From: Longimicrobiales bacterium
GTDB lineage: Bacteria; Gemmatimonadota; Gemmatimonadetes; Longimicrobiales; RSA9
Direction of reading: 5' to 3'
NCBI GenBank assembly: GCA_035461245.1
Contig: DATHVP010000025.1
Location: 79,714 to 143,713 of the forward strand
DNA: 64,000 nt
Shown: piece after piece, positions 30,780-47,956 of the stretch
Layout of the letters: each line of letters starts with the position of its first letter
Position numbering within the stretch: the stretch's first letter is position 1
Notes under the pieces: generated by a model
The model's database searches: none
The model's input: the letters and a program-made list of their open reading frames with translations, nothing else
Told to the model about the DNA's origin: nothing
Made by a program: the position numbers and the translations under genes

Positions 30780-31799
30780 ATGAACGAGACAGCGAGTCCC
30801 ATCCTGGGCAGCAGCCGTGCGGCGGTGGAGACACGGGAGTTTGCGGCACAGGCGGCGGCCGTGGACGTGCCGGTCCTCATCACGGGGGAGACGGGCACGG
30901 GCAAGGGCGTACTGGCGGCGGCCATTCACCACGGTTCCCGCCGGACGAAGCGGCCCCTGGTGGAGGTCAACTGCGCGGGCGTGCCGGACACCCTGTTCGA
31001 GGCGGAGTTTTTTGGCCATGCCCGGGGTGCTTTCACGGGTGCGCACCACGCCCGGCGCGGCCTGTTCGAGCAGGCCAGTGGCGGCACGCTGTTCCTGGAC
31101 GAGATCGGCGAGCTCGGGCTGCCGCTGCAGGCAAAGCTGCTGACCAGCATCGAGCGCGGCCAGATCCGGCGGCTCGGCGCGGAAGCGACAGTGGCGGTGG
31201 ACAGCCGGATCATCGCCGCCACCGGTGTGGACCTGGAGGCGGCCGTGGCGGCTGGCAGCTTCCGCCTGGACCTGTACCATCGGCTGCTGGTGCTGTCATT
31301 TCACCTGTCGCCGCTCCGGGATCGGGGCGCCGACATACGGCTGCTGGCGCGACATTTCATCTGCACCAGCGCCGCGCGCCATGGGCGCCGTACTGGTGAC
31401 CTTGCCCCTGCAACACTGCGCATCATCGAGAACCATCCGTGGCCCGGTAACATCCGGCAACTCGCCCACGCCATGGAGGCCGCCGTGCTGAACTGCCACG
31501 GCGGCACCATCCTGCCCCGGGACCTGCCCGCACGGCTCATGGACGCGACCAGGTCTGCAGCCGGCCCATTGCACAGCTCTGATTCCGGCGCGGGCAGGGG
31601 CCGACCGGCATCCCGGCGGCCTGGCGCTCGCTACTCCTTCTACGGCCCGCCGGCCGAGGAGCGCCAGCATATCGAGGCGGAGTTGCGCGCGTGTCACGGC
31701 AACCTCACCCGCACCGCGCGGGCACTGGGCATGTCCCGCAACACCCTCCGCGCGCGCATGGCAGCCCTGGGCATCCGCCTGCCGGCGTCCGCCCGCTGA
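30780..31799 (+). CDS. Sigma-54-dependent transcriptional activator (bEBP) consisting only of AAA+ and HTH domains
   Basis: Walker A GETGTGKG at residue ~36, GAFTGA loop, Walker B LFLDEIGEL, WPGNIRQL, and C-terminal Fis-type HTH GNLTRTARALGMSRNTLRARM. Only about 25 residues precede the AAA+ core, and a stop codon closes the frame upstream. Confidence 0.85.
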   Translation: MNETASPILGSSRAAVETREFAAQAAAVDVPVLITGETGTGKGVLAAAIHHGSRRTKRPLVEVNCAGVPDTLFEAEFFGHARGAFTGAHHARRGLFEQASGGTLFLDEIGELGLPLQAKLLTSIERGQIRRLGAEATVAVDSRIIAATGVDLEAAVAAGSFRLDLYHRLLVLSFHLSPLRDRGADIRLLARHFICTSAARHGRRTGDLAPATLRIIENHPWPGNIRQLAHAMEAAVLNCHGGTILPRDLPARLMDATRSAAGPLHSSDSGAGRGRPASRRPGARYSFYGPPAEERQHIEAELRACHGNLTRTARALGMSRNTLRARMAALGIRLPASAR

Positions 31800-32594: not shown

Positions 32595-33875
32595 TCACAG
32601 CGCGGCGTCCTCCGGGGCGCCGTCGTCATTTGTACCACCGCCGCCACCGCCACCGTTGTTCCGCGGCACTGCAGTCCTGCCGGTGCTGGTGCTGTTGCCG
32701 GTGCTGCCCGACGTGGACGATGCGCCGGCGGATGACCCGCTGGCCGGCTGGCGGGTCTGCGCGCCGCGCCCGCTGGACGTGGCGCTGCTGCCCGGTGTGT
32801 AGCCCTGGCCGCGGATCATCTGGCCGCCCCGTCGCTCTTCCCGCTCCGGCTCCACGATGACGACGATGGGGCCCTGACCGTAACGCCAGCCGTAGGCGTC
32901 ATAGCCCCAGGGCGAATAGCCGAACCGGCCGTAGCTCGAGCCATAGCCGTACATCGCCCGTCGCTCACACTCCAGGCGGCTCAGGCGACGGAACGTGTAG
33001 GGGTCCCGGCAGTCGTCGTACATGCCGGTGCGCAGCCCTGCCGGCGCTGCCTGCCCCTGGCTGCGCGGCCCCTCCTGCACCGCGAACCGCTGCGGGTGCG
33101 ATACGGCGATCATCACGTCCAGCACCGACGCCGGCACGCCCTGTCGCTCCAGCGCCAGCAGCGCCCGGGCATCCAGGCCGAAGCCGTGCTGCCGAAGTGC
33201 GATGAGTGCCTCCACCACCGGTGCGGCCACCATTGTCGTCGCCTCGACGACGTCATCCGTACCCATGGGCGCTGCCGCGTTCAGCCGGGCCGCTTCCGTG
33301 GCGAGGCTCCGGTCGGCTGGCAGCATGCCGGCCACTGCGTCCGGCACCTGCTCCGGCCGGACGGCGCGATAACGCACCGAGCGGGTCAGGTGCTGGCCGG
33401 CAATCTCCACGGCCTGCACGTCCACCCACTCGTTCTCGGCGATGAGGGACAGGACACCGGAGGACTTGCGGCGCACGCCGTCGCAATCGAGTTCGGTGCG
33501 GACGTACACGCGGCGTCCGTCCCGGGACCACGTTGCCGTCTCCGTGCCGGTGCAGCCGCCGTCCTCCACTGCCCGGGCCGTGCCGTCGGCTGTGAACACG
33601 GACTCGTCCACCACGGCGCCGTCCTCCACCGAGAGCATGCGGACGGTGGCCGGATTTTCTCCCGGCGCCACACAGACCAGGGCGTTCAGCGGCGCGTCGT
33701 CGCCCAGCGGCCGCCAGCAGCCGAGCCACGGCGTCCAGCCGCTGTTCTCCTGCGAGGCGGCCGTGGCCTCAGCGACGGCGGCGCTGCCGGGCGCCGTGCC
33801 CTCCGCCGTGCCTGCCGTGGGCAGAGCCAGCAGCGCCAGCAGCGCTGCGGCCGGGGTCATGCTGCGAGCCTTCAT
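32595..33875 (-). CDS. Secreted hypothetical protein with Cys-containing N-terminal domain and Gly/Ser-rich tail
   Basis: AAGGAGG SD before ATG 33875. Signal peptide MKARSMTPAAALLALLALPTAGTA. Conserved-looking Cys pairs. C-terminal low-complexity segment SSATSSGRG...STSGSTGNSTSTG...GGGGGGG. No family recognised. Confidence 0.6.
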   Translation of the reverse strand: MKARSMTPAAALLALLALPTAGTAEGTAPGSAAVAEATAASQENSGWTPWLGCWRPLGDDAPLNALVCVAPGENPATVRMLSVEDGAVVDESVFTADGTARAVEDGGCTGTETATWSRDGRRVYVRTELDCDGVRRKSSGVLSLIAENEWVDVQAVEIAGQHLTRSVRYRAVRPEQVPDAVAGMLPADRSLATEAARLNAAAPMGTDDVVEATTMVAAPVVEALIALRQHGFGLDARALLALERQGVPASVLDVMIAVSHPQRFAVQEGPRSQGQAAPAGLRTGMYDDCRDPYTFRRLSRLECERRAMYGYGSSYGRFGYSPWGYDAYGWRYGQGPIVVIVEPEREERRGGQMIRGQGYTPGSSATSSGRGAQTRQPASGSSAGASSTSGSTGNSTSTGRTAVPRNNGGGGGGGTNDDGAPEDAAL

Positions 33876-33893
33876 CCGTGCCTCCTTACTCAG

Positions 33894-34628
33894 TCACCAG
33901 CGCCAGGAGACGCCAATGAACGCCTGCGTACCGCTGAGGTCCATGCTCTCAAACCGGCTGTAGCTGCCCTGCACCGGCGCCGAGCCGCGAGTGTGCCGCG
34001 CCTCCACGTTCAACCCGATGCGCGGCGTGACCCACCAGTCGCCGCCCGCCACTGCGTGGACGGTGAAATTGTGGGCCGTGGATTCGTACTCCTCAAGGAA
34101 GATATCATAGGTCTGCCTGTCAACGAACTCCCCCTCCTGCCGGAGGCGGTACCACGTCATGCCCACGCCGCCGCCGATGTACGGCGTGACCCGGGCGGGC
34201 AGCCAGGCCAGGTTGCTCATGGTGCGGCCCCGATCCAGTGGCAGGTAGCGGGCAGTGGCCGTCACCGGCGCAATCCGCAGCCTTGTCCTCTGCTCGATGG
34301 GCAGCCCGTCATCGCCCTCGAAGTCCCGGTACTCGGACCTGCTCGAGGACTCGGCCCACCCCACGCCCAGGGCCAGGTCGAAGTTCGTGCCCAGCAGCAG
34401 GGCCAGTTCCGCGCCCAGCATAGGCGCCCGGAAATCGCTCCGCTCGAGGGTCAACTCCGTGGTGATCTCGTCGAACAGGTCGCTGCGCGCCTGCGGCAGT
34501 GACGGCCCGGCGCGCACCGTCAGCTGCGCCTCCGGCCGTGAGAAGAGGAACCCGTCCTGCGCGTGCAGCAGCGCGGGCGCGCCGGCCAGCGCAACGGCGG
34601 CCGCCACACATGTCCTGAATCTGCCCAT
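33894..34628 (-). CDS. Outer-membrane beta-barrel protein (about 244 aa), family unassigned
   Basis: Signal peptide MGRFRTCVAAAVALAGAPALLHAQ, alternating amphipathic strands, and a C-terminal aromatic end (FIGVSWRW). The next gene starts 18 bp downstream. Confidence 0.65.
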   Translation of the reverse strand: MGRFRTCVAAAVALAGAPALLHAQDGFLFSRPEAQLTVRAGPSLPQARSDLFDEITTELTLERSDFRAPMLGAELALLLGTNFDLALGVGWAESSSRSEYRDFEGDDGLPIEQRTRLRIAPVTATARYLPLDRGRTMSNLAWLPARVTPYIGGGVGMTWYRLRQEGEFVDRQTYDIFLEEYESTAHNFTVHAVAGGDWWVTPRIGLNVEARHTRGSAPVQGSYSRFESMDLSGTQAFIGVSWRW

Positions 34629-34669
34629 GAGGCCTCCCGGGCATCTGGATGTCTGTGAGAAGGTACGAC

Positions 34670-34684
34670 GCAAGGCGTGCACCG
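34670..34684 (-). promoter_or_regulatory. Weak sigma-54-like element (CGGTGCACGCCTTGC on minus strand)
   Basis: GG-N10-GC spacing and a TTGC -12 box are present, but the -24 box is GGTGCA rather than GGCACG. About 40 nt upstream of ATG 34628. Confidence 0.15.
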
Positions 34685-34805
34685 GCACCGTCGCCGACTA
34701 CTCCCGCCTGAGTACTACGGCGCCCGGGCCGGCAGGTTCCGTCCGGGGCCGGCGGGCACCGCGTACACCTTCGCTGACCGCGCTTCGGCGACGTCGGGCC
34801 CGCCC

Positions 34806-36284
34806 CTAGGGCACCCGGACGCGGTAGAAAACCTCGAAGGATGCGCCGTGGCCGGCCATGCTGCCGCTCATCTGGATCCTCCAGTGCGTGACGTTGGCGT
34901 CATAGCCCGCCGGCGCGCCGCCGCCGCCGGACACGGGGACATACGTCCACGTCACACCGCCGTCGCTGGAGAACTGCGGTGTGCCCAGCGCCAGCCCCGA
35001 CGCCGACGCGCCCTGCACCAGCAGGAACGGAGCGCCGCCAAATGCGTCCAGTTCCAGGGCCACGCCGTCCAGCGCCGTCCGGACAAGTACGCCCTCCGCC
35101 GGCGCGTGCGCCGGGTTGGAAACGGCCACCGAGTAGAGCCGCACGTCGCCCGGCACGGCCGCCGCCACGTCCACGGTGTGCAGGATGTTCAGTTGCGGCG
35201 ACGGCTGGAGTGTGAACGGGACGGACGCCGCGTTGTTCGCCGGGTCCGAGTCGGTGCCCGTCCAGGTGGCAATGACGGCGGACGCGGACAGGCCGGCCGG
35301 TTCCGGGACAGCCGTGCCGCGCACCGTGATCTGCAGCTGCCGCTGCGCCTCCGCCGCCAGCAGCGGCAGCGTCCAGCGGTCGGGGCGGCCATCGCCGTTC
35401 GTGTCGGCGAACGCGGTGCCCGCAGGCGCGCTGTGAGTGACGTACGTCACCTGCGACGGCAGCGCGACGTCCACCCCGACACCGGTGAAATCATCGAAGT
35501 AGATGTTCCTCAGTGTGACGGTCAGCGTCATGTCCTGGCCGTGGCCCACGTGGGCGGTGCCGGCAACCACTTCAACGCCCATGTCCGGCGGGAAGAGCGA
35601 GCCGCCCGTCGGGCCGCCCATGTTGTCCTCCACGTGGCCCGGCAGGTTGAAGCCGCGGGATGACGAGATATGGAACCCCACGTTTTGCGGCCCCGCCATG
35701 CCCAGGTCGCTCCAGGCAAGACGCGCTTCCATCTCCAAACCGGTGACAGAGCCGCCTGTAACGTTGGAGTAGAGCGTGGCGCAGCCCGTGGCTGAACCGG
35801 GCATCGTAAACCCATCGCCACGGATGGGATCGCCGCCCGCGGCGACCTGCACATACGTGCACAGCGAGGCCGTCGTGCGCCGGTTGCTACCCTGCCAGTC
35901 CACGGCAAAGACACGCTCCCCGGTGGACATGCGACCGTCGTTATTGTCGTCCAGGTAGAACAGCCACGTCGTCGTGTTGCTGGAGCTGGCATAGCGCTCA
36001 ACGTAGAAGTACAGGTACGCCGCGTCCCACGTGTAGGAGAAGAATTTCAGGTCCCGGCCGGCGCTCTGGCCCGGGTCGTTCTCGCACGCCTGACCGGCCT
36101 GGCAATCCGTGCTGAACTGGCCGGGGTTGGTCAGGATGGACGGCGCTGCCGTCCAGTCGGACATGTGGCCATCCACCGTGATGGTCCGATCAATCCGCGC
36201 CTGCGCCGCTGCCGGCGCCCTGATGGCGACGAGCGCAAGCAGCGCCATCGCCGCAGCCACGACTGCCTGTCGGAGCCACGTCAT
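34806..36284 (-). CDS. Secreted protein: CBM9/DOMON-like N-terminal domain plus DUF11-type Ig-fold repeats
   Basis: Signal peptide. ITVDGHMSDWTAAPS...FSYTWDAAYLYFYVE resembles sugar-binding CBM9-like modules. DUF11 signature DVALPSQVTYVTHS. ATG 36284 overlaps the stop of the 1457-aa gene (ATGA). Confidence 0.7.
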   Translation of the reverse strand: MTWLRQAVVAAAMALLALVAIRAPAAAQARIDRTITVDGHMSDWTAAPSILTNPGQFSTDCQAGQACENDPGQSAGRDLKFFSYTWDAAYLYFYVERYASSSNTTTWLFYLDDNNDGRMSTGERVFAVDWQGSNRRTTASLCTYVQVAAGGDPIRGDGFTMPGSATGCATLYSNVTGGSVTGLEMEARLAWSDLGMAGPQNVGFHISSSRGFNLPGHVEDNMGGPTGGSLFPPDMGVEVVAGTAHVGHGQDMTLTVTLRNIYFDDFTGVGVDVALPSQVTYVTHSAPAGTAFADTNGDGRPDRWTLPLLAAEAQRQLQITVRGTAVPEPAGLSASAVIATWTGTDSDPANNAASVPFTLQPSPQLNILHTVDVAAAVPGDVRLYSVAVSNPAHAPAEGVLVRTALDGVALELDAFGGAPFLLVQGASASGLALGTPQFSSDGGVTWTYVPVSGGGGAPAGYDANVTHWRIQMSGSMAGHGASFEVFYRVRVP

Positions 36285-39200
36285 CGGCCACCTCCCATCC
36301 GCGCACGCCAGTTCTCAGCCATGTTCCGACCCGTCTGCTCCGTCACGCTCATGCCCAGGCTCAGGTACCAGCCGCCCCGGCCATCCGGTGCGAAGTCCCG
36401 GTCACTCAGGTCGCCGAAGCGGTACCCCGTCTCCAGCTCCAGCCCCGGCAGCAGCCGGAAGCCCAGCGCCGGCGACAGGTCCCACTGCGCCAGTTCCGAC
36501 CGTGTCTCCCCCAGCACGCGGAACCCGAGGCGGGCGTCCAGCCGGTCCATCAGCGGCTGGCGCACCCGCGCTCCCACGTAGTGGTTATGGCTGCGCAGCA
36601 CCCAGCCGTTGGCGGCCTCGCCGGTCAGCTCCGAGAAGCGGATGGCGTAGCGGCCGCCCAGCTCAGTGCCGTACTCCGTCACCCAGATGCCTTCGGCGGC
36701 GGCGATGATGCGCGCGTCCACACCGTTCAGTACAGCGCCCCCGGCGCGCATGGGGTTCTCGTCCCGACGGCGCTCCAGCTTGAACAGGCCGTTCCAGTCG
36801 CTCCGGTTTGCCGGCCGGTACGCCAGCGCTGCCATGCTGTGGCTGGCCCGCACGGCGGCCACGCCCGTGTCCAGCAGCCGCCGGTCCTCGCGGGCATCCT
36901 GCCGCAGCAGCAGCGCCCACGACCGGTCCAGCACGGCCTCCGCCGTGCCCACCACACGGTAGCCCCGTCCGGTACTCTCACGGTCGTGCAACTCCGCCCG
37001 CAGGCCCAGCATCACGTCCCGCTGCTCCGGGGCCCACGCCACGCCACCGGCCACCGTCCACCGGTCTTCCTCCAGCTCGGGGAACGGCAGCGTCCGCATC
37101 GGATCGGTCTCCGGCAGCCGGCTGATGCCTGCCCGCCGCTCCACCATCGCGTCCACGCCCCAGCCGCCGCCCAGGCTCAGCTTCTGGCCGAGACCCGCCA
37201 GCAGCGCACGCTGGACACCGACAGCGCCGCCGGACTGCTCCATCTGCGTCCACGCCCGCGTGCCCCGGCCGAACTCCGTCCGGACGCCGGCACTGGTGAC
37301 GCCCCACGTCGCCGAGTCCGTGCTGAACACATGGTGTCCCGCCTCCAGCCGCACGCCGTCCAGCACCCGGTACGCTGCGCCGGCGCCGATGCTCCGGGGC
37401 CGCGCCATCGTGCTGCCGCTCAGCGGTTCGCTGCCCTCCACCCAGATCGCCGTCCGTGCCGTCTCCCACGCGGCCCGGACCAGCGCTGACCGGAGCGACG
37501 ACGTCACACCCGACCGCTCACTGCTCTCCTCCTGCACCCCGCCCTCCAGCGTCATCCGGCTGGCGCCCTGGCGCCGCTCCGCGCCCAGCAGCGTCCGCGA
37601 CCGGGCCGCGCCCCTCTGGCTGAACCACTGCTGGCTGTGCATCGCCTCCACGCGCCACGCGCTGTCCAGCCGGACGGCGCCCGCCAGCCGCACGTCCTCC
37701 GTGCCCGCCACCAGCCGCGGGTTCGCCGGGTTGTGGAAGCCACCGCCCGTACGGTTCCACTCAAGCCGCGCCGAGAGCCGGTCCGACGCGCCACCCAGCC
37801 AGCCGGCCGCCTGTATGGCCAGGCCTGCCGAGTCGCCAGCAGCACCGCGGGCCACTTCCACCCGCGCCCCTACCGGGCCCGCCGCCAGCCGCGCGTCCGC
37901 CGACACCAGCGAATGGCCGCCCAGCGTGCTGCGATCCTCGATGAACGCCGCGCCGGCAACCGCCGAATCCGCGGGCACGCCCAGCGCGCCGACCACATCC
38001 ACCTGCGCCCGCACGCCACCCACGAACGACTCCTCGCCGAACAGCTGCTCCGCCAGTACCACCAGCATGAGCGGGTTGCCAGCGGCGTCCGCCGACGGCA
38101 GCGGCCGGCGCAGCAGGATGGCACCGCCGGCCGCGTCCATGTCATAGTCCACGAAGCGCTCCAGCTCGTGCCGCGCCAGCACCAGCGACGCGTTCAGCCG
38201 GTCCCGCGTCTCGATGGCGACCCTGTCCGTGCCCAGGCGGACGGCGCCGCCGACATGGTACGGGCCGGAACTGCCGTTGCCGCGCATCTGGTGCTGCACC
38301 AGCTGCTGGCCCACCAGGCTGCCAAAGCCCAGCAGCTCCACGGCGCCGGCATGGAGCTGGCCGCTCACGCCGGGCAACGCCCGGTTGTAGGAACCAGGCG
38401 TGCCAGGCTCGCCGAAGCCGCGGGTATCCATGTCGCCCAGGAGCAGCCAGCTCCGGTCCCGCTCGATGCGGAGCGACACCGGCGTCGTCAGGCTGCGCAG
38501 CATGATGCGCTCGCTGTTGTCGCCAAGCGTGAGGTAGCGGCTCTCGTCCAGCGCGTCGTACGCGCCGCCGAAGCCGTCCTCGGGCCGGCGGTTCCGGGAG
38601 TCGTAGCTCACCGTCACGGCCGTTCGCTCGTCGAGGGCGCCCCGGGCCAGCAGCGCGCCGTAATTCCGGGAGGCGGCGCCGACACTAACCTCACCGTCGG
38701 CCAGCAGGATCAGCCCGCGCACGTCCGGCAGCACGGCCAGCGGGAAGGTTCCCCGGACCTGGCCCGCCTGGAGCGTGAGGCGCGCAGCGCCCGTGGAGTC
38801 CGCGCGCACCGGCACCAGGGCGACACCATTGGCGTTCACTGGCACCTGGAGCCCGTAGCTGCCGCGGTTCGCATCCTCCGCCAGCACATCCAGCCCATCG
38901 GCGGTCACTGTCACATGCGGCCCCTGCGCCACCGCCACGCCCCATTCGTCCAGCACGCGAACGGCGATGAGCGACGTCGCCCCTGCCCTGACCTCGGCCG
39001 AATCCGCCCGCTCGAAGCGGTGCGGCGAGCCGGACACGTGCACGGAGATGGCGTGACGCTGCTCACCGGCGGCGCCCCGGACCACCGCCTCGATGGTGTT
39101 CGGACCCACCCGCAGCGGCACACCGATGAAGTCCTCGACGCCGTCCGGCCGCAGCACCGACTCCCGGATGAGGGCGCCGCCCACGTAGAGCGCTACCGGC

Positions 39201-40654
39201 CGCGACGCCTCGCCTTCCACGCGCACGTACACCCGATCGTTCGGCAGCATGGCACCGTTCGCCGGCGCCGCCACGCGGGGGCGCGGCACGAACAGGCCGC
39301 CGGCCACGGCGATGCCCTCAACCGCCGCCTCGTCCGCCACGACACTAGTCGTGTCCCGGCGCAGCCCGAAGCCCACCGACGGTGTCGTCCAGCCGTCCAC
39401 GCGGATGCTGGCCACATCGCCGGGCAGGTATCCCGCCGGCACGCTCAGCGGGTCCACCCGCAGCGTATACCGGCCCGGGCGCAGGTCCGGCAGGGAGAAC
39501 CGGCCCTCGGCATCGGCGCGGACCATTTCGCCGCTGGACACCCACACGATGGCGTGGCCCAGCCCCCTCTCGCCGGGCTGCTGCCGGCCGTCGCCGCTGT
39601 CGTCCAGCCACACGCGGCCCAGGACCGCCCGCGTGGCCATGCGGCCGTCGCGCACCCGCACCGCCGTCCACGACGTGTCCGTCCGCGTACCGTCCGCCAG
39701 TTCCACCCAGGTCGCGTGCCGCAGCACGCTGCCCCATTCGGCGCCCGCCGTGGCAGCGTACCGGACCACCACGCTGTCGCCCGGCGCCAGGACCGGCAGC
39801 GCGAAGCGTGGCTCCCGCCCCGCCTCCATCATGAGTGCGCCATGCTCCGTGCCCGGCTGGGGATCCAGCCCCGTCGGGAAGCTGGCCCGCAATGTCGCGC
39901 CGGCCACCGCGCCAGCGCTCGTATTCCGTATGACAACCGTGAATCCCACCGGCCCGGCGACGCCTACCTCCGCCACCGAAGCCCGGCTCTCCAGCGCCAC
40001 TGACGCCTCGGGCGCTGGCGGCTGCGGGTCCGTCACGGCCACGGCCACCGAGGTCGCCACGGCTTCGTCCATGCCGTCGCTGCGTGCCGTTGCACGCGTG
40101 GCGATGGCGCCGCTGGCCACGGACTGGACCTCCACGCTCATCTCGATGACCCGCGTCTCGCCAAGGGCGAGTTCCGCGATCCGCCACCTGGGCGAATTGG
40201 CGGCCGGCCGCGCTGACATGGCCCCGCTGCTGACGCCGGTCAGGGGGGTGTCTGATCCAATGAAGTTCAGTTCCTGCGGCAGTTCATGAGTTACCACGAC
40301 ATTCCGCAGCAGCATCTCAGCCGAGCGGTTGCCCACCGTGATGCGGTACGTCAGCGTGTCGCCCGCACGCAGCGGCCCGCTCACCACTGCTTCCAGTTCC
40401 AGGGCGAGGTCCCGGGGAAGGACCCGCATCTGGACCGGCATGGTTGCCCGGGCCGTGTCCATCCACTCCCGGCCCGTACTGTCAAGGAACCGGATCACTG
40501 CCCGGTTCTCCACCTGGACGACGCCGCCCGACTGGGCCGCCACCGGCGACACTGCCGCCAGCAGCACGACGAGCGGGCCCGCGGCGCGGCCGACGGCACG
40601 CAGAAACGTCCTGCCTGCCGAAAGCCGTTCCGTGAACCCGCTCGTGCGCATCAC
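36281..40654 (-). CDS. Giant (1457 aa) outer-membrane protein: DUF11 repeats + SdrD-B/Cna-B-like + Ig-like domains fused to a C-terminal barrel-like region of about 800 aa
   Basis: Signal peptide to ~aa 41. DUF11 signature VVTHELPQELNFIGS (aa ~119-134). SdrD-B-like GRVWLDDSGDGRQQPGERGLGHAIVWV...DAEGRFSLPDLRPGRYTLRV (aa ~345-400). Ig-like modules run to ~aa 645. From ~aa 650 there are long runs of alternating strand-like segments ending LELETGYRFGDLSDRDFAPDGRGGWYLSLGMSV. Confidence 0.75.
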   Translation of the reverse strand: MMRTSGFTERLSAGRTFLRAVGRAAGPLVVLLAAVSPVAAQSGGVVQVENRAVIRFLDSTGREWMDTARATMPVQMRVLPRDLALELEAVVSGPLRAGDTLTYRITVGNRSAEMLLRNVVVTHELPQELNFIGSDTPLTGVSSGAMSARPAANSPRWRIAELALGETRVIEMSVEVQSVASGAIATRATARSDGMDEAVATSVAVAVTDPQPPAPEASVALESRASVAEVGVAGPVGFTVVIRNTSAGAVAGATLRASFPTGLDPQPGTEHGALMMEAGREPRFALPVLAPGDSVVVRYAATAGAEWGSVLRHATWVELADGTRTDTSWTAVRVRDGRMATRAVLGRVWLDDSGDGRQQPGERGLGHAIVWVSSGEMVRADAEGRFSLPDLRPGRYTLRVDPLSVPAGYLPGDVASIRVDGWTTPSVGFGLRRDTTSVVADEAAVEGIAVAGGLFVPRPRVAAPANGAMLPNDRVYVRVEGEASRPVALYVGGALIRESVLRPDGVEDFIGVPLRVGPNTIEAVVRGAAGEQRHAISVHVSGSPHRFERADSAEVRAGATSLIAVRVLDEWGVAVAQGPHVTVTADGLDVLAEDANRGSYGLQVPVNANGVALVPVRADSTGAARLTLQAGQVRGTFPLAVLPDVRGLILLADGEVSVGAASRNYGALLARGALDERTAVTVSYDSRNRRPEDGFGGAYDALDESRYLTLGDNSERIMLRSLTTPVSLRIERDRSWLLLGDMDTRGFGEPGTPGSYNRALPGVSGQLHAGAVELLGFGSLVGQQLVQHQMRGNGSSGPYHVGGAVRLGTDRVAIETRDRLNASLVLARHELERFVDYDMDAAGGAILLRRPLPSADAAGNPLMLVVLAEQLFGEESFVGGVRAQVDVVGALGVPADSAVAGAAFIEDRSTLGGHSLVSADARLAAGPVGARVEVARGAAGDSAGLAIQAAGWLGGASDRLSARLEWNRTGGGFHNPANPRLVAGTEDVRLAGAVRLDSAWRVEAMHSQQWFSQRGAARSRTLLGAERRQGASRMTLEGGVQEESSERSGVTSSLRSALVRAAWETARTAIWVEGSEPLSGSTMARPRSIGAGAAYRVLDGVRLEAGHHVFSTDSATWGVTSAGVRTEFGRGTRAWTQMEQSGGAVGVQRALLAGLGQKLSLGGGWGVDAMVERRAGISRLPETDPMRTLPFPELEEDRWTVAGGVAWAPEQRDVMLGLRAELHDRESTGRGYRVVGTAEAVLDRSWALLLRQDAREDRRLLDTGVAAVRASHSMAALAYRPANRSDWNGLFKLERRRDENPMRAGGAVLNGVDARIIAAAEGIWVTEYGTELGGRYAIRFSELTGEAANGWVLRSHNHYVGARVRQPLMDRLDARLGFRVLGETRSELAQWDLSPALGFRLLPGLELETGYRFGDLSDRDFAPDGRGGWYLSLGMSVTEQTGRNMAENWRARMGGGR

Positions 40655-40681: not shown

Positions 40682-41839
40682 CTAGCGGACGCGTGCGATG
40701 ATCTCGATGGTCAGCGAAGCACCCGCCGCCAGCGTCGCTACCGTTGCCGTCACCGTCTGCCCACCCGTGGCCGAATCCCAGCCCGTAGCGGTGTGGCTCA
40801 CGTACTCCAGTTCCGCCGGCAGGTCATCCGTCACCACCACATCCACTGCTGCGCTGCCGCCCGTGTTCTCCACCGTGATGACGTAGCGGACCTCCTCGCC
40901 GGGCAGCACGTTGCCGGCGATTACCGAACCGTCAGGACGCGTTACGTCCTTCGCGATGCTGATGGCCGGCCGCGCCAGTGTGGCCGTATGGGTCGCTGCG
41001 TCCGTCACCGAGGCGTCGCTGGCGTTGACGGCCGTCAGCGTGATGCTGCCGGTACCGCTTGCCACGTTCGCGACGCTGTAGGTCACCGTGTAGTCCACGG
41101 ATGCGCCCGCGGCGAGGATGACGCTGGCGGGCATGCCGCCGTCGTCGGTTATGCTCACCTCGCCTGACGCCGACTGGGTCAGGTTGAAGGTGTAGGAGGC
41201 GCCACCGGTGTTCTCGACGGTGAAGGTCACCTGGTACGTGCCCGGCACCACGTCGCGGGTGGCGGGGTCCGCCGTTACCGACACGCCCGCCGTCGGCACC
41301 TCGATGGTCACCGCCGCAGGCGTGTGGCTGACGTCGCCGTCGCGACCGGACGTGGCCGTGAACGTGAGCGCCTGGTCATCGCCGCCGGTTCCGCCGTTCA
41401 CCGAGTAGTTGACGGTGACGGTCAGGTCATCGCCCATGTCCACGTTCATGGCAGCCAGCGCTGCGTTCAGTTCGGCGAGATCCGCGTACGTTGCGGCGCC
41501 GACGGTGAAGCCGGTGACCGTGAGACCGGCGCTCGTCGTCAGCCCCACCACGAACTGGTCTGTCCCGTTGCCGGCATTCGTGATGGTGTAGGCCGCGGTG
41601 CCGGTGGCGCCGGGCAGTGTCGTCAGCCCGGACGGCGGCGCTACCGTGACGCCGGCCTGGAAGCCGACGGTCACGGTGGCGCTGGCCGTCTGCTCAGCGT
41701 ACGTGTTGCCGTTGGCGTCGGTGAACGTCACCCGCGCCGTGTTGGTGATGACCGTGCCTTCCGGCGTCGGTGTCTGGGCCGCCAGCGGCGCTGCCACCAT
41801 CAGCAGCACGGGCAGCCAGAGCAGGATCTGTTTCCTCAT
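40682..41839 (-). CDS. Secreted Thr/Ala/Gly-rich multi-Ig-fold protein with C-terminal DUF11 domain (candidate fibre/major subunit)
   Basis: GGAGAG SD before ATG 41839. Signal peptide MRKQILLWLPVLLMVAAPLAAQ. Repeated beta-rich segments (TFTVENTGG, YVITVENTGG). DUF11 signature VVVTDDLPAELEYVS. Confidence 0.75.
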   Translation of the reverse strand: MRKQILLWLPVLLMVAAPLAAQTPTPEGTVITNTARVTFTDANGNTYAEQTASATVTVGFQAGVTVAPPSGLTTLPGATGTAAYTITNAGNGTDQFVVGLTTSAGLTVTGFTVGAATYADLAELNAALAAMNVDMGDDLTVTVNYSVNGGTGGDDQALTFTATSGRDGDVSHTPAAVTIEVPTAGVSVTADPATRDVVPGTYQVTFTVENTGGASYTFNLTQSASGEVSITDDGGMPASVILAAGASVDYTVTYSVANVASGTGSITLTAVNASDASVTDAATHTATLARPAISIAKDVTRPDGSVIAGNVLPGEEVRYVITVENTGGSAAVDVVVTDDLPAELEYVSHTATGWDSATGGQTVTATVATLAAGASLTIEIIARVR

Positions 41840-41911
41840 TGTTCTCTCCACAGGGCAAGTGGTCCGAATGCACGAAAGGGGACGGCACCCGCCGCCCCGC
41901 TACTTCACCTG

Positions 41912-42439
41912 CTACTGCCGTACTGCACCGGGCGGCGCCGGCCGCGCGCCCACCAGGACGTCATACCGCGCCGTGACGCGACTGCCCGGCGCAACGCCGT
42001 CGGTGATGACCCAGCGGACATGCGTGTACGTCGCCGGGTCGGCCGGCAGCGCCACTGTGCGGCCGCCATCCGTTACCTCCACCATCGGCTGCGGTGAGTA
42101 CGACACGCCGCCATCCACCGAGTACTCGATCCGCGCGGTCACATCCGACTGCGCGCTGCCCCCGATGAAGACCAGCCCCCCGGGCAGCGGGTTGTCGATG
42201 GCCACGTTCCGGACCTCCGCGTCCTGCGTATTCGTGAAGTCCAGGTGGAAGCGGAGCGTGTCGCCCGGCAGCGTGGCCGCCGCGGAAGACCGCGCGCTGT
42301 CCTTCGCCAGCGTCAAATTCTCCTGCCGCAGCACCAGCGCTTCATCCCCGCCGGACGCCTGCGCCCGCGCCGCCCTGGCCGGGCCCAGCACCGCCATCGC
42401 CGCTGCCAGCACCGTCACCAGCTTCATGGTCCTTTTCAT
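41912..42439 (-). CDS. Small secreted single-DUF11-domain protein (175 aa)
   Basis: GGGAGG before ATG 42439. Signal peptide MKRTMKLVTVLAAAMAVLGPARA. DUF11 signature VRNVAIDNPLPGGLVFIGGS. First gene of the cluster. Confidence 0.65.
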   Translation of the reverse strand: MKRTMKLVTVLAAAMAVLGPARAARAQASGGDEALVLRQENLTLAKDSARSSAAATLPGDTLRFHLDFTNTQDAEVRNVAIDNPLPGGLVFIGGSAQSDVTARIEYSVDGGVSYSPQPMVEVTDGGRTVALPADPATYTHVRWVITDGVAPGSRVTARYDVLVGARPAPPGAVRQ

Positions 42440-42586: not shown

Positions 42587-42683
42587 AAGGAAGTGTAACG
42601 ATCGGAAAATGTTGCGGGACAAGGGATATTTTGTACTCGCAATCAAATGTGGGGGACCGGAAAAATGTGGAATTCCGTCGCGC

Positions 42684-42698
42684 TGGCACTGCTCGTGC
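42684..42698 (+). promoter_or_regulatory. Sigma-54-like -24/-12 element TGGCAC-N5-GTGC
   Basis: TGGCAC at 42684-42689, 5-nt spacer, GTGC at 42695-42698 (one mismatch to TTGC). The predicted +1 near 42710 would leave only ~6 nt before ATG 42716. If the gene starts at 42647 or 42665 instead, the site lies inside coding sequence. Confidence 0.3.
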
Positions 42699-42715
42699 CT
42701 CTGTCCGACCGCCGT

Positions 42716-44875
42716 ATGAAGACACTGACCATGGCGATGCTCGTCGCATTGCAGCAGCCGGTGGCTGCCCAGCAGCCCCGCGACAGCATTTACGAGACTG
42801 CCGCGCTGGCGGCGATTGTGGACCGGGCCGCTGAGCTGAACGCTCGCGTACCCGCGGGCCTGAATTCCTACCGTGCCCGGGTAGAGACGGAACTGTCGTT
42901 CGTGCGGGCGGAGCCGGACGGGCGGGAGACGGTGCTGCAACTGGAGCAGGTGGCCAGCGATCTGTTCTGGCGGCAGGACGGCGGCGTGCTCCAGCGGCTC
43001 ATCGGCTACCGGTCGCAGACGCTGGGCGCGTCGTTCTCGGGGCTGACCTTCTTCGACGTGCCGTGGCTGGTGCCCATCCTGTATGGGGAACGCATCGACC
43101 TGGTCCGCACGGGGGGGCCCGCGTACGAGGGCGGCATGCTGCTGCGACGGCGGGCGCTACACCCGTTCGCGCCCACGCGGGAGGAAGTGTACCGCTACGC
43201 CGGCGGCGACACCGTGGACATCATCGTGCTGCCGGACCGGCGCATCCCCATCATCCGGATCCATGTCGAACCCCGGTCTCAGCCGCGGCTGCCGACGCTG
43301 CTGTTCCATGGCGACATAGACATTGACGTCACGCGCATGCACATCGTGCGCATGCAGGGGCGACTGGTCCCGTCGGGTCGCGGCCGGACGGCGCTGGACC
43401 TCGTCGCGCAGGGCGTGCTGTTCGTGAGCTTCGAGACAGCCGAGTACGACGAAGGCTACTGGCTGCCGCGAACGCAGCGCTTCGAGTCCCAGGCCATCTC
43501 GCGGCTGGGCGAGGAGCGGATCCTGTTCCGGGCCATCTCGCGGTTCGTGGACATCCATACCAATGACCCGGAGGCTGCGCGGCTGGCGGCGGACCCGGTG
43601 GATCATCCTTTCGGGCTCATGGTTGGCGGCGATGACCTGGGCGCCCTGGGCCGGTTCGGCGAATGGCGCACGGGCATGGGCGACCTGAACGCGGAAGTGG
43701 ACGCCCGGGACTTCGACCAGTGGGCGCCGCCGGGCATCCGGCGCACGGGCGAGCCCCGCGTGTATCTGGGCGCCCGCCGCTTCTCGCAGATCTTCCGTAT
43801 AAACACGGCCGAGGGCGCGTTCACGGGTGCCGGCATCGGCTTCGACGCCGGCGATGCGTGGCCCGGCTTCGGCGCCCGCGTCCACGGCGGCTGGGCCTGG
43901 GCCGAGGAGACCTGGCGCGGCGGTGCCGAACTGTCCCAGCGCATCGGCAACTGGGAGGGCATTGCCCGCGGCGAGCGCCTCCTGGCCCATACCAACGACT
44001 TCACCTGGGCCATGGACCCCGAGCCGTCGGTGCCGCCCATGCTGTCAGGCGACCTGTACGACTACCTGGACCGCCGCGTGGGTGGGCTGGTGGTCCGGAC
44101 CGCCGCGGCCGACCGCGTCGGCTTCCGCTTCGAGGCCGCCCGGGCCCAGGACAGGAACGTGGGGCGCAACGTAATGGACTTCCCCGCGCTGGATGACGAC
44201 GGCGCCTGGATCCCGCCGGAGACTCACACGGGCGACCTGCGCCTCAACCGTCCCGTGGCGGAAGGCGAGTACTGGCTGGGCCGCGCGGAGTTGCGCCTGA
44301 ACCCGTCCGCCGGCGGCATCTCGCTGGATCCGGGGCTGGCCGTGCGCCTGGCCTGGGAGGGCGCCAGCGGTGACCTGGACTGGCACCGGCTGGAGGCCGG
44401 CTTCGCCCAGCGTCGCATGCTGGGCCGCTGGACGCTGGGCCTCCGTGGCGATGCCGGCATCATGCTCACGCCCGGCGACGCCGAGCCCGTGCCCCAGGCC
44501 CTGTTCGAACTGGGGACGTCCGCGGACCTGCCGGGCTTCGCGTACAAGGAGTTCGTCGGAGACCGTGCCGCCCTGGGCCGCGGCACCATCATGTACACGC
44601 TGCCCATCTTCAACGCGCCCATCCGCCTCGGCTCGTTCTGGCTGCCGGCACCCGCGCCATCGCCGTCGGTCGGGCTCCAGGTCGGCTGGACGGACGCGGC
44701 CGCGGAGACGCAGCAGCTCATGGACCGTTTCGGCTGGGGCACCTCCGACGGCGCCCGCGCCGCCGTGGACCTGCGCCTCCGCTTCTTCGGCGGCAGCGTC
44801 AACATCGGCGCCGCCCGGCCGCTGGACAGCGATGGCCGGTGGCGCTTCGTCTGGGGACTCGTAGGTGGACTCTGA
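42716..44875 (+). CDS. Omp85-superfamily-like outer-membrane protein (paralogue of 14671-16953); start uncertain (42647, 42665 or 42716)
   Basis: MKTLTMAMLVALQQPVAAQQP aligns with the paralogue's signal peptide end (PAAAQRP). Shared blocks: L.SY.A, YRY..GDT, WLPR. C-terminal ELGTSADLPGFAYKEFVGDRAAL resembles the LGG..LRGY surface-antigen motif. Confidence 0.65.
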   Translation: MKTLTMAMLVALQQPVAAQQPRDSIYETAALAAIVDRAAELNARVPAGLNSYRARVETELSFVRAEPDGRETVLQLEQVASDLFWRQDGGVLQRLIGYRSQTLGASFSGLTFFDVPWLVPILYGERIDLVRTGGPAYEGGMLLRRRALHPFAPTREEVYRYAGGDTVDIIVLPDRRIPIIRIHVEPRSQPRLPTLLFHGDIDIDVTRMHIVRMQGRLVPSGRGRTALDLVAQGVLFVSFETAEYDEGYWLPRTQRFESQAISRLGEERILFRAISRFVDIHTNDPEAARLAADPVDHPFGLMVGGDDLGALGRFGEWRTGMGDLNAEVDARDFDQWAPPGIRRTGEPRVYLGARRFSQIFRINTAEGAFTGAGIGFDAGDAWPGFGARVHGGWAWAEETWRGGAELSQRIGNWEGIARGERLLAHTNDFTWAMDPEPSVPPMLSGDLYDYLDRRVGGLVVRTAAADRVGFRFEAARAQDRNVGRNVMDFPALDDDGAWIPPETHTGDLRLNRPVAEGEYWLGRAELRLNPSAGGISLDPGLAVRLAWEGASGDLDWHRLEAGFAQRRMLGRWTLGLRGDAGIMLTPGDAEPVPQALFELGTSADLPGFAYKEFVGDRAALGRGTIMYTLPIFNAPIRLGSFWLPAPAPSPSVGLQVGWTDAAAETQQLMDRFGWGTSDGARAAVDLRLRFFGGSVNIGAARPLDSDGRWRFVWGLVGGL

Positions 44876-45151: not shown

Positions 45152-47956
45152 CTATCGCGCCTGCAGCCACACATCCTCGAGCACCCGCACCATCTGCGAG
45201 TACTGGCTGCCACCTATCTCCAGCGCAACGCGGTACGTGCCCGGCTGCGCCAGCGGACCCTGCTGCGTCTGCCCGCCAGGTCCCTGCCGCGAGTTCCCCC
45301 GCAGGTTCCACTGCACACGATGCAGGCCGGCCGTACCCGGGCCCGACAACTCACGGAATACCTCTCCCGACACCAGGTCCGTGATAACGATGCGTACATC
45401 GCCACCTGCCGGCTGGCGCAGGTGGTAGCTGATGGCGGTGCCCGCGGGCGCTGACTGGCCAGTCCAGTTCTTCGCACCCGTCACGGACCGGGAACTACGC
45501 CTGTCGGTCTTCCACAGCACCGCCTCCCGGGGCGCGAACAGGTGAGCCGCCGCCGCCATCACGTCCGGGGTCAGCTGCTGCAGTGGCGAGATGTCGTCCA
45601 TCACGGCCACGCCCCGGCCATGGGTGGCCAGCACCAGGTCGTTCTCCCGGGGGTGAACCAGTACGTCATCAACGCGCACCGTAGCCAGGTTGTTCATGAA
45701 CCGCTTCCAGCTGCGGCCCTCGTCCACACTGATGAAGAAGCCGAATTCCGTGCCGGCATAGAGCAGGCCCGGATTCTTCGGGTCCTGCCGCACAGTGTTG
45801 ACGTTGCCGAACTGCGGCAGGTCCGATGCGATGCTCTGCCACGTCCGGCCGTAGTCGCGCGTCACATAGACGTACGGCCGGTAGTCGGCGCTCCGGCGGC
45901 CGTCCACGGACGCGTATGCCGTGGCCGGGTCGTGATGCGAGGCCTCCACCCGGGAGACGTAGTACTCCTTCGTGCCGCCGGGAACGTTCTGGCCGACTTC
46001 GGTCCACGTGGCGCCGCCGTCCCTGCTCACCTGGATGTTGCCGTCATCAGTGCCCACCCAGAGGATGCCGGGAACGATGGGCGACTCGGCGACGCTCACG
46101 ATGGTGCCGTAGGCGCTGATACCGTCATTGCGGGACAGGATGCATGGCACACCCCGCGTGTTCCTGTTGCACGTCGGCGTGTTCAGCCGCACACCCATGA
46201 TGCTGCGGCCCATGCGATCGATCTGCTTCGTCAGGTCTGGGCTCATGACCCATGTCTCGCCGCGATCGTACGACTTGAACAGCCGGTTGCCACCGGCATA
46301 CACCACGCTCGGGTTGTGAGGCGACAGCATGAATGGCGTGTTCCAGTTCCATCGGATCTGCGTACCCGCCGGCGGCGCGGGGACGATGTTCGTAGTCGGG
46401 TTCTGGTTCGTCGGCGCGCGGGGGCGGATGCTGCCGCCGCTGCCGTCCCGCAGGCTCACCCGATTGATGTTCCCGTTCTGTGACTCCCAGTAGATGATGT
46501 TCGGGTCCGTCGGGTCAATGGCCGTGTAGAAGCCGTCACCGCCGCCCACCCGGAACCAGTCCTGTGCGAGGATCGGCCCCGTCCGCATGCCGCTGGGGCC
46601 GCACCAGCTGCCATTGTCCTGCAGCCCGGTGCACACGTTGTAGGGTCGCTGCATGTCCACAGAGGCATGATACGGCTGGCCCACGGACCAGGTGCGCAGG
46701 GACTCCCAGGTCGCCGCCTGGTCATGGCTGACATCCACGGAGCCGTCATTGCCGAGCATGACGTGGTTGCCATCCTTCGGGTTGATCCAGATGGCGTGGT
46801 GGTCCACGTGGCCGAAGCCGCTCAGCGTCTGCCAGGTCCTGCCACCGTCCACGGACTTGTACGCCTGCACGCCACCCGTGTAGACAATATCCGGGTTCGT
46901 CGGGTCTACCCGGAGAATGCTGAAGTACATGGGACGCACATTGTTGTTCGACATGAACGTCCACGTGCGACCCTTGTCGCTGGAGCGCCACACCCCGGAG
47001 AACTGCGGATCCGGCGCCTGCTGGCCACCCTGCTGCGATGAGTTCTGCGCCGCCGCAACCCGTGGCTCGCGGTCCGGTGCCACCTCGATCTGTGCGTATA
47101 TCACGTCCGGGTTCGACCGGGCAAAATCCATGGCAATCCGTCCCATTGTGCCATTGGGCAGGCCGTTGCCCTGGACCCGCTGCCAGGTCTCGCCGCCGTC
47201 GTCCGAACGGAAGATGCCGCTGCCCGGACCGCCCGAGGCAAACCCCCATGCCGTCCGCTGGCGCTGGTACAACGCCGCGAACAACGTGTTCGGGTTCGAC
47301 GGGTCGATGATCAGCTCCGTCGCGCCCGCATGCTCGTTCTCGTACAGCACACGGCGCCAGTTGCGGCCACCATCCGTGCTCTTGTAGACACCGCGCTCCG
47401 GATTCCCGCCGAACAGTGCGCCCGCCGCCGCCACCCAGACCACGTCCGGATCCGTCGGGTGCACGACGATGCGCGCGATGGTGAGCGTCTCCCGCAGGCC
47501 CACGTGACTGAATGTCCGGCCGCCGTCAGATGACCGGTACACTCCGTCGCCATACGTCGAACTCTGACGGTTGTTCGCCTCGCCTGTGCCCACATACACC
47601 ACGTCCGGGTTCGACCGGGAGACCGCCACGGCTCCCACGGACGACGTGCCGTAGGCGCCGAACACGTCCTCGAACGTGATCCCGTTGTTCTCCGTGCGGA
47701 ACAGGCCGCCTCCGGCGAACGCCACGTAGAACCTGCGCGGGTCCGACTCCACCACCGCAATGTCATTGACCCGGCCACCCTGGCCGATGGGACCGATCTC
47801 CCGCCACCGGAACTGTGTCAGCAGCGGGTCGTCCGCCTGGTTCAGTACCGGCCGCCGCGCCTGCGCCTCCACCGGTACCGGCCCCATACCCGCTGCCAGC
47901 ACCACCATCAGCGTGGCCAGCCGCAGTACGCCCCGCCAGCGCCATCCGCTCGTCAT
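45152..47956 (-). CDS. BNR/Asp-box repeat protein, sortilin-VPS10/glycosyl-hydrolase-like double beta-propeller
   Basis: About ten Asp-box motifs (SSDGGRTF, STDGGRNW, SDDGGETW, SSDKGRTW, SVDGGRTW, SYDRGETW, SRDGGATW, TRDYGRTW, SVDEGRSW). Signal peptide present. AGGAGAG SD before ATG 47956. Confidence 0.85.
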   Translation of the reverse strand: MTSGWRWRGVLRLATLMVVLAAGMGPVPVEAQARRPVLNQADDPLLTQFRWREIGPIGQGGRVNDIAVVESDPRRFYVAFAGGGLFRTENNGITFEDVFGAYGTSSVGAVAVSRSNPDVVYVGTGEANNRQSSTYGDGVYRSSDGGRTFSHVGLRETLTIARIVVHPTDPDVVWVAAAGALFGGNPERGVYKSTDGGRNWRRVLYENEHAGATELIIDPSNPNTLFAALYQRQRTAWGFASGGPGSGIFRSDDGGETWQRVQGNGLPNGTMGRIAMDFARSNPDVIYAQIEVAPDREPRVAAAQNSSQQGGQQAPDPQFSGVWRSSDKGRTWTFMSNNNVRPMYFSILRVDPTNPDIVYTGGVQAYKSVDGGRTWQTLSGFGHVDHHAIWINPKDGNHVMLGNDGSVDVSHDQAATWESLRTWSVGQPYHASVDMQRPYNVCTGLQDNGSWCGPSGMRTGPILAQDWFRVGGGDGFYTAIDPTDPNIIYWESQNGNINRVSLRDGSGGSIRPRAPTNQNPTTNIVPAPPAGTQIRWNWNTPFMLSPHNPSVVYAGGNRLFKSYDRGETWVMSPDLTKQIDRMGRSIMGVRLNTPTCNRNTRGVPCILSRNDGISAYGTIVSVAESPIVPGILWVGTDDGNIQVSRDGGATWTEVGQNVPGGTKEYYVSRVEASHHDPATAYASVDGRRSADYRPYVYVTRDYGRTWQSIASDLPQFGNVNTVRQDPKNPGLLYAGTEFGFFISVDEGRSWKRFMNNLATVRVDDVLVHPRENDLVLATHGRGVAVMDDISPLQQLTPDVMAAAAHLFAPREAVLWKTDRRSSRSVTGAKNWTGQSAPAGTAISYHLRQPAGGDVRIVITDLVSGEVFRELSGPGTAGLHRVQWNLRGNSRQGPGGQTQQGPLAQPGTYRVALEIGGSQYSQMVRVLEDVWLQAR

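Follow-up and report, generated by a model that had tools for sequence, protein, structure and literature searches.

A predicted giant-barrel protein and its split-CLIPPER partners as candidate parts of a surface fibre in diderm bacteria

What does a secreted protein of 1457 amino acids (aa) do if it joins an adhesin-like N-terminus to some 800 residues of strand-like sequence, and with which partners does it work? The question is raised by a stretch of 64,000 nucleotides from a Longimicrobiales bacterium (GenBank assembly GCA_035461245.1, contig DATHVP010000025.1, positions 79,714 to 143,713 of the forward strand), referred to here as the window, in which the protein, called BIG below, is encoded on the minus strand at 36281..40654. 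A preliminary description had left the choice between a passenger-barrel fusion and an usher-like pore carrying its own immunoglobulin (Ig)-fold adaptor domains. Our analysis, which is computational throughout, gives a probability of about 0.55 to the reading that BIG, anchored in the membrane, forms the base of a surface fibre made up of several proteins, with split CLIPPER domains and a giant barrel as its elements, and that such fibres are present in many diderm bacteria. By sequence comparison we show that complementary halves of one domain reside on different secreted proteins of a conserved gene cluster, and that gene position consistently goes with one of three roles: acceptor alone, donor with acceptor, or donor with barrel. 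The preliminary description missed both the orphan donor strands of BIG (aa 41-82) and the conserved multi-gene split-CLIPPER system.

The split CLIPPER domain

The open reading frame (ORF) of BIG comprises 1457 codons counted from a GTG, and the true start is probably Met2, since an identical protein of 1456 aa (P0004) exists on a public 48.5-kb metagenome contig. Its G+C content at third codon positions (GC3) is 0.89, as in the genuine genes of this window of ~70% G+C, and overlapping ORFs in other frames lie lower; the gene is further supported by a family of homologues (see below). The GC skew over the gene (window positions 36001-40000; -0.18 and -0.12) is markedly more negative than in the remaining window, a Gly/Ala/Arg-rich coding strand probably being the cause. 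The protein starts with a hydrophobic signal peptide (aa 1-40, 40535..40654), recognised by reading the sequence and ending in ...GPLVVLLAAVSPVAA/QSGG. It is followed by an orphan 'donor' segment (aa 41-82, 40409..40534; QSGGVVQVEN(50)RAVIRF...MPVQMRV) and by two complete CLIPPER/DUF11 domains, at aa ~83-200 (40055..40408) and aa ~215-330 (39665..40012). The two domains were found in Pfam (PF01345, E 3.7e-15, two stretches) and by a family-specific hidden Markov model (HMM), which places them at aa 95-199 and 220-325, and in NCBIfam the DUF11 repeat was the sole match of BIG. The ORF, its signal peptide and its two DUF11 domains are therefore as first described.

The family-specific HMM, of 122 positions, was built from complete CLIPPER domains in the big proteins. 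Its consensus residues K6, D40 and N101 are spaced like the isopeptide triad K715, D748 and N806 in the CLIPPER domain of known structure (PMC12617251), to which they correspond. The K and N positions co-occur in complete CLIPPER domains, 165 of which have both, 59 only K and 12 only N. Read against this HMM, the isopeptide Lys and Asn are missing from both complete domains of BIG. The segment at aa 41-82, about 42 residues long, lies outside the first DUF11 domain and corresponds to the last two CLIPPER strands, the position of the isopeptide Asn included. It is left without a partner in cis, because the first complete domain has final strands of its own.

The complementary halves were sought in every ORF of the loci examined, 46 related loci of which 4 were fetched by protein identity and 42 taken from reference genomes. 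Fifty-two neighbour proteins (45 of them distinct) end 1-3 residues, a few of them up to 7-8, past HMM position 88-90 of 122, and the cut point of the 45 distinct acceptors falls just before the last two strands, which carry N101. Of the 45 truncated terminal domains, all keep Asp40, 44 keep Pro43 and 36 keep the strand-A Lys. In the window, where all the cluster genes lie on the minus strand, a shaft-type subunit of 389 aa (40682..41851) combines an N-terminal donor (aa ~26-60 with Asn37, 41672-41776), recognised by family motif and HMM, with a C-terminal truncated CLIPPER acceptor (aa 296-389 with Lys301 and Asp342, 40685-40966) that stops at HMM position 90 of 122. Its Pfam DUF11 match reaches the last residue of the protein yet spans model positions 12-84 of 114, and its Gemmatimonadales homologues show an identically cut-off match. 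The PF01345 scores of three window proteins are 56.7, 63.9 and 55.6 bits, against a gathering cut-off of 24.6.

Two further window proteins have an acceptor without a donor. The tip-type subunit of 492 aa (34806..36284) contains a complete CLIPPER domain and a terminal truncated one (aa 365-492, 34809-35192) in which Lys and Asp are both missing; its N-terminal ~200 aa are unannotated and lectin-like as judged by eye only. Its ATG overlaps the stop codon of BIG as ATGA (36284-36281), and homologous loci show the identical 4-base overlap between the big gene and the gene downstream, in agreement with the translational coupling noted before. The small subunit of 175 aa (41912..42439), found in nearly all loci, consists of one truncated CLIPPER-like domain. 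The small proteins of the cluster usually have Asn at the Asp40 position and no Lys. With an acceptor and no donor, such a protein might cap the distal end of the fibre or serve donor strands as a reversible chaperone.

The missing strands recur at other N-termini of the cluster. In upstream subunits of four size classes, AGTxIxNxAxxxYxD...SNxVxxxV, the sequence of the missing strands, stands directly after the signal peptide, and at the same place the alignment consensus of the big proteins reads GxxIxNxA...SxxVxxxV. A strict donor pattern was found in 52 of 119 big proteins against a background of 2%, and in an unbiased alignment 85 of 121 big-protein homologues have Asn at the key donor position. 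The large downstream proteins, including the 492-aa protein of the window, have no donor segment yet end in a truncated domain. When the BIG donor was appended to the truncated domain of the 389-aa protein, the family HMM score rose by 6.3 bits, above all 200 shuffles, and with the donor of the 389-aa protein itself it rose by 5.8 bits; the N-terminus of the small protein gained 1.3 bits only, and the 99th percentile of the 700 controls was 4.0-6.4 bits. The N-terminal peptides alone had no matches in Pfam.

There is a hint that the Lys of the shaft acceptor and the Asn of the big-protein donor covary in trans. The donor Asn was also lost in 2 of 7 loci without the acceptor Lys and in none of ~20 loci keeping it, an association of roughly p = 0.06 before relatedness is allowed for. 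Shaft acceptors of Roseateles aquatilis (L030) and Collimonas antrihumi (L037) have a motif with Cys, QALDA[GN]C...PGAC, in place of the strand-A Lys, and the donors of the big proteins there have no Asn. A disulfide or purely non-covalent junction may take the place of the isopeptide in this lineage.

BIG has also to be considered as a self-contained, autotransporter-like fibrillar adhesin, whose barrel exports and anchors its own CLIPPER/SdrD stalk while the DUF11 neighbours are independent surface proteins. The passenger would be N-terminal and the barrel C-terminal, as found, the number of N-terminal repeats varies among homologues as in adhesin stalks, and CLIPPER domains are typical of fibrillar adhesins (PMC12617251). 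Nevertheless, we hold this reading to be unlikely: it leaves unexplained that the strands missing from the neighbours are the very orphans found at the N-termini of BIG and of the shaft subunits, as well as the cross-phylum gene order and the translational coupling, and 38 strands go far beyond what is needed to pass a single chain.

The predicted outer-membrane barrel

Between the CLIPPER domains and the barrel region of BIG lies an SdrD_B/CarboxypepD_reg-like beta-sandwich (aa ~343-434, 39353..39628). The SdrD-B/Cna-B-like domain of the preliminary description is thus present (aa 347-409), with a Pfam score that remains below threshold (21.4 bits against a cut-off of 29.7); many homologues are annotated with such a domain, and a PDB sequence search with BIG returned SdrD alone, weakly (E 0.0087). 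The predicted local distance difference test score (pLDDT) is 83-91 over this domain and <50 in a disordered linker at aa 437-456. The two further Ig-like modules of that description, at aa ~460-540 and ~546-642 (38726..39277), are all-beta in the model with pLDDT about 82-91, and both are kept in the alignment consensus of BIG homologues.

In single-sequence and profile searches the C-terminal ~800 residues matched nothing in Pfam, NCBIfam or PDB sequences, and no characterised family by profile. AlphaFold2 (AF2) was run on the barrel region (818 residues) with an alignment of 34 sequences and gave a model with a mean pLDDT of 82.4 and a predicted template modelling score (pTM) of 0.76. Strand count and closure were read from the DSSP string of this model, loop parity and covariation. 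In the DSSP string about 38 long strands follow one another as a hairpin-joined meander, so that the predicted giant barrel would span aa 649-1438 (36341..38710), with an amphipathic helix past the last strand at the C-terminus (aa 1439-1454, 36293..36340). Long loops outside and short turns inside are the usual rule for membrane barrels. With the C-terminus placed in the periplasm, all long loops of the model (13, 9, 12, 21, 15, 69, 15 and 40 residues) point outward and the inner turns have 2-10 residues.

Covariation was analysed by mean-field direct coupling analysis (DCA) of 193-226 sequences, in a reduced-alphabet run and then in a full-alphabet run on the terminal columns. Antiparallel ladders join consecutive strands, which fits a hairpin meander. 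For the ladder between strand 1 and strand 38, the full-alphabet run gave 0.76 against a background of 0.46 +/- 0.17, exceeding the 95th percentile, with the 99th percentile at 0.77. The strongest pair of the reduced-alphabet run (1.21; next pair 0.78) consists of barrel residues 115 and 279 (aa 754 and 918), which join the loop before strand 6 to strand 10 and are not hairpin neighbours.

In a Foldseek search of the barrel model against the PDB, the top-ranked matches were outer-membrane barrels (BtuB, LptD, SlpA, FimD and SprA) with probability 1.0. Their TM-scores of 0.2-0.3 indicate that none is close: the best is the 30-strand SlpA (TMq 0.30), FimD reaches a TM of 0.20, and SprA (6h3i_A) a TMq of 0.16 at E 2e-4. 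Most likely the C-terminal ~790 residues of BIG form one outer-membrane barrel of about 38 predicted strands, which bears out the idea of a strand meander far beyond type V size (12 strands). The contrary reading, that residues 649-1438 are a soluble or surface beta-rich domain mismodelled by AF2 and not a closed membrane barrel, could appeal to the low TM-scores to genuine barrels and to the reduced-alphabet covariation, which did not settle closure. With a pTM of 0.76 across 818 residues, a top-ranked Foldseek list made up of membrane barrels throughout, loop lengths that obey the short-turn/long-loop rule, full-alphabet covariation favouring the pairing of strands 1 and 38, and periplasmic-type domains flanking the region in homologues, it is the least probable of the readings considered here.

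The match to SlpA bears on a different role, that of an envelope tether or periplasmic scaffold, in which a peptidoglycan-tied barrel would hold an Ig polymer in the periplasm, like Deinococcus SlpA or chlamydial OmcB. Besides the best TM-score, OmpA or TPR domains in homologues and a weak Chlam_OMP6 match of the 389-aa protein agree with such a role. It appears very unlikely all the same: SLH domains and coiled coils are absent, the tip proteins, which reach 900-2,300 residues and carry beta-helix or adhesin-like domains, look extracellular, and a huge lumen would be purposeless in a tether.

On the preferred reading of a fibre base, the topology of the barrel decides where the remaining parts of BIG may lie. 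From 38 strands and a periplasmic C-terminus it follows by strand parity that the N-terminus of the barrel is periplasmic as well. Among the homologues, an OmpA domain follows the barrel in P0036 and a TPR domain in P0084, and in P0026 and P0044 an OmpA domain separates the barrel from the N-terminal CLIPPER/SdrD_B domains, roughly at the position of the disordered linker of BIG. OmpA domains bind peptidoglycan, and their occurrence in the pre-barrel stretch argues that this stretch is periplasmic. When the SdrD-like domain and the two Ig modules were added to the barrel, the pTM was 0.74 compared with 0.76 for the barrel alone, and this nearly unchanged value suggests that at least the two barrel-adjacent Ig modules are packed on the barrel. 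The most invariant stretch of the BIG family is found in an insert of ~70 aa between strands 7 and 8 (aa 792-860, 38075..38281) rather than in the strands. It was delimited from invariant alignment columns and the AF2 model, reads GNGSSGPY...RFVDYD..G..L.R.P.PS.D..GNP, and matched no known domain. In the AF2 model it contains four short strands; loop parity would put it on the extracellular side, and it may act as a lumen plug or gate.

An usher-like platform, whose N-terminal arm stays in the periplasm and docks or holds the subunits of a fibre made of the partner proteins, would accord with the periplasmic barrel N-terminus, with OmpA inside the N-terminal region of P0026 and P0044, with the two conserved Ig modules probably packed on the barrel, and with FimD among the Foldseek matches. 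Ig-repeat arms of up to about 1,980 residues would, however, be hard to house in the periplasm, neither an usher Pfam match nor, in the window and the annotated homologous loci, a PapD-like chaperone was found, and the conserved insert between strands 7 and 8 is on the outer side, unlike the usher plug. Weighing these points, we regard such a platform as improbable.

Homologues, hosts and neighbouring genes

Homologues of BIG were collected by a word-index search with aa 640-1457, which gave 3 relatives, by a profile of these, which gave 46, and then by exhaustive HMMER searching. At E <= 1e-3 the family has 3,595 representatives (50% identity clusters), and 1,637 at E <= 1e-30. The barrel region is essentially always C-terminal, and what precedes it differs widely in size among homologues (median about 1,100 residues, at most about 1,980). 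The hosts include Gemmatimonadota, Abditibacteriota (a complete genome among them), Verrucomicrobiota/Chthoniobacterales, Eisenbacteria and Gammaproteobacteria, alphaproteobacterial Sphingomonadales (Erythrobacter litoralis, Qipengyuania) and betaproteobacterial Burkholderiales (Roseateles, Aquincola, Collimonas).

Judged by GC3, the minus-strand operon of the window runs in the order 175-aa protein, 389-aa protein, BIG, 492-aa protein, a 264-aa outer-membrane-protein (OMP)-like protein and a 426-aa protein. A core is common to all loci examined: the big protein is accompanied by a small protein (~160-200 aa) and by a CLIPPER protein (~330-420 or ~870-915 aa). A downstream gene, encoding between 166 and about 2,300 aa, often overlaps the big gene. 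For the 175-aa and for the 389-aa protein, 40 or more ORFs in the 46 related loci match. Tip-type partners in other phyla are very large, 1,500-2,300 aa (the downstream genes of L039, L040 and L044, and L004:13082-18058), and the one in L004 carries beta-helix/NosD-like domains, which suggests diverse enzymatic or adhesive heads on one fibre scaffold.

The small OMP-like gene for 264 aa and the gene for the 426-aa secreted protein (together 32595..34688) are on the same strand and probably belong to the same operon. As a chaperone or accessory core of the system they were rejected, with 0 homologues in the 46 related loci, and their membership in the fibre system is doubtful. The 426-aa protein (32595-33875) has a Gly/Ser/Thr-rich low-complexity tail of ~90 residues and no Pfam match. 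Divergent from the operon on the plus strand is a gene for 742 aa (42647-44875) whose coding signal is strong (GC3 0.89); it too has no Pfam match, and the 46 related loci contain no homologue. About 0.8 kb past the end of the operon, the plus strand encodes a sigma-54 activator of 339 aa (30780-31799) with AAA+ and Fis-type helix-turn-helix domains and no N-terminal receiver; in the Gemmatimonadales loci L002 and L003, a sigma-54 response regulator and a histidine kinase lie immediately upstream of the homologous cluster. No convincing sigma-54 promoter (-24/-12) was found upstream of the window operon. A Sortilin-Vps10/BNR-repeat protein of 934 aa is encoded near the cluster of the window (45152-47956, minus strand), and one of 1070 aa near the two Gemmatimonadales clusters (L002:20773-23985, L003:19549-22761); the recurrence of such a gene could be a matter of synteny, or the protein could be linked to the cluster in function, for instance by binding or processing glycans.

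The proposed fibre, its relatives and its meaning

In the mechanism that we favour, the subunits would be joined head-to-tail by donor-strand complementation, in the order tip (acceptor only), one or more shaft subunits (donor and acceptor) and BIG (donor only). With Lys and the catalytic Asp retained in the truncated domains and Asn in the donor, most junctions could lock covalently and spontaneously, in the manner of a natural SpyTag/SpyCatcher pair. In the window, the lock would form between Lys301 and Asp342 of the 389-aa protein and either Asn37 of another copy or Asn50 of BIG, and the tip junction would be non-covalent. With less confidence, we propose that the wide lumen of the barrel would pass folded Ig-type subunits outward and finally the N-terminal stalk of BIG itself, that the barrel-proximal Ig modules would remain at the periplasmic mouth, as would the OmpA or TPR domain of some homologues, and that insertion of the BIG donor strand would stop growth and tie the fibre to the cell.

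Several points weigh against this proposal. Covalent locking is not universal: neither Lys nor Asp is present in the window tip, and Lys is missing from nine truncated domains. Because of strand parity and the OmpA domain in the N-terminal region of some homologues, part or all of the N-terminal arm, or even the whole polymer, could be periplasmic. The completion test was non-discriminating when made with Pfam DUF11, where the donors gained 4.2 and 8.2 bits and the controls 6.2 and 2.3 bits; there, appending the N-terminus of the 492-aa protein, which is unrelated, raised the score no less than true donors did. The covariation backing for barrel closure, at about the 98th percentile, is modest, and no chaperone or energy source was identified. 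For closure, strand number, lumen content and donor-acceptor fit the evidence is indirect throughout.

Among known systems, chaperone-usher pili offer a parallel in logic. On the reading proposed here, Sec-exported subunits of Ig fold would likewise be left incomplete and be completed by the N-terminal strand of a neighbour, the tip would have no donor, shaft subunits both features, and a last subunit would end growth; the cluster also contains the gene for a large predicted outer-membrane barrel. The present system differs in its CnaA/CLIPPER fold, in the two strands, not one, that would be donated, in junctions that are possibly covalent, and in a barrel of about 38 predicted strands, fused to the last subunit, where the usher has 24. 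The usher carries a plug between strands 6 and 7 and periplasmic domains at both the N- and the C-terminus, whereas BIG has its insert between strands 7 and 8 and only a helix past the barrel. No similarity to usher (PF00577), chaperone or pilin was detected by sequence or profile, and a PapD-like chaperone gene was absent from the window neighbours and from four homologous loci whose Pfam annotation was precomputed. Type Va/Ve autotransporters likewise place an adhesin-like Ig stalk and a barrel on one chain, the stalk presumably passing through its own barrel. The predicted barrel of BIG is about three times larger (about 38 strands against 12) and would work with partner subunits, and BIG matches no autotransporter family of Pfam, with no hit to Autotransporter PF03797 at E <= 0.1. 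Both alternatives of the preliminary description seem right in part. The distal N-terminus resembles an exported fibre subunit, with a donor strand and a CLIPPER stalk of variable length, as a passenger would, and the proximal Ig modules with the linker before them, which holds OmpA in some homologues, are probably periplasmic, as in an usher-like pore; membership of the autotransporter or the usher family is unsupported.

Features of sortase-dependent pili are absent: the subunits end in ...RVR, ...RVRVP and ...AVRQ with no LPXTG or hydrophobic tail, and the annotated neighbourhoods contain no sortase gene. Donor-strand exchange together with an intermolecular isopeptide is documented for BsaA of Clostridium perfringens (10.1101/2024.11.04.621531) and proposed for Sulfolobus threads (PMC9715654). 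As in BsaA/TasA fibres and these threads, an N-terminal donor would enter a neighbour and the isopeptide would form through an Asn/acid/Lys triad or, in such fibres, the N-terminal amine; the split-CLIPPER lock is proposed from conserved residues. The domain families differ, and the hosts of those fibres are single-membrane or archaeal, with no outer-membrane component. No TasA-type Pfam match was found, and the hosts here are diderm, in contrast to the SipW/Gram-positive context of TasA fibres. The solved CLIPPER structure (PDB 9IFR, PMC12617251) belongs to the same domain family and has the Lys-Asp-Asn triad at the same positions; its bond is intramolecular, whereas here the Asn strand is on a separate chain from Lys and Asp. 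A description of the system itself was not found in the literature, only such analogues.

As regards the barrel, the type IX secretion translocon SprA/Sov has 36 strands and is still given as the largest known barrel in a 2026 preprint on strand counting, and Solan et al. 2021 (PMC8346858) predicted from contact maps a 'superfamily of large OMBBs' (outer-membrane beta-barrels) with 38 and 40 strands, giving no function. BIG would share with these a single chain of ~36-40 strands and a lumen wide enough for folded proteins. SprA is not meaningfully similar to it (TMq 0.16), Pfam gives no match, and most hosts here lie outside Bacteroidota. The predicted strand number of family 003 of Solan et al., 38, equals that of BIG as read by DSSP from the AF2 model, a comparison of strand number only, and the BIG barrel family may already have been predicted in that work.

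Somewhat short of even odds, in our judgement, is the broader claim that these loci represent a widespread, undescribed class of pilus and secretion pathway in diderm bacteria, with CLIPPER domains split in trans, spontaneous intermolecular Lys-Asn isopeptides, and export and anchoring by a ~38-strand barrel fused to the last subunit, with no homologue of usher, chaperone or sortase. Cultured carriers of the family exist in Erythrobacter, Qipengyuania, Roseateles, Aquincola, Collimonas and Abditibacteriota IAD-21. If the proposal is true, a function would be at hand for a family of giant barrels that AlphaFold DB does not show, because un-curated predictions there are limited to 1,280 residues (2026 preprint) and these proteins are longer. 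BIG would be the largest single-chain beta-barrel predicted so far, with about 38 strands, and after SprA a second pore wide enough for folded proteins, which would raise the question of its gating. Isopeptide chemistry of the SpyTag/SpyCatcher type would be in natural use in trans in Gram-negative bacteria and would offer new orthogonal protein-ligation pairs. The assembly of surface fibres across the outer membrane is so far attributed to the chaperone-usher, type IV and type V systems and to curli; the cluster described here would add a new route by which covalently reinforced fibres reach the cell surface.

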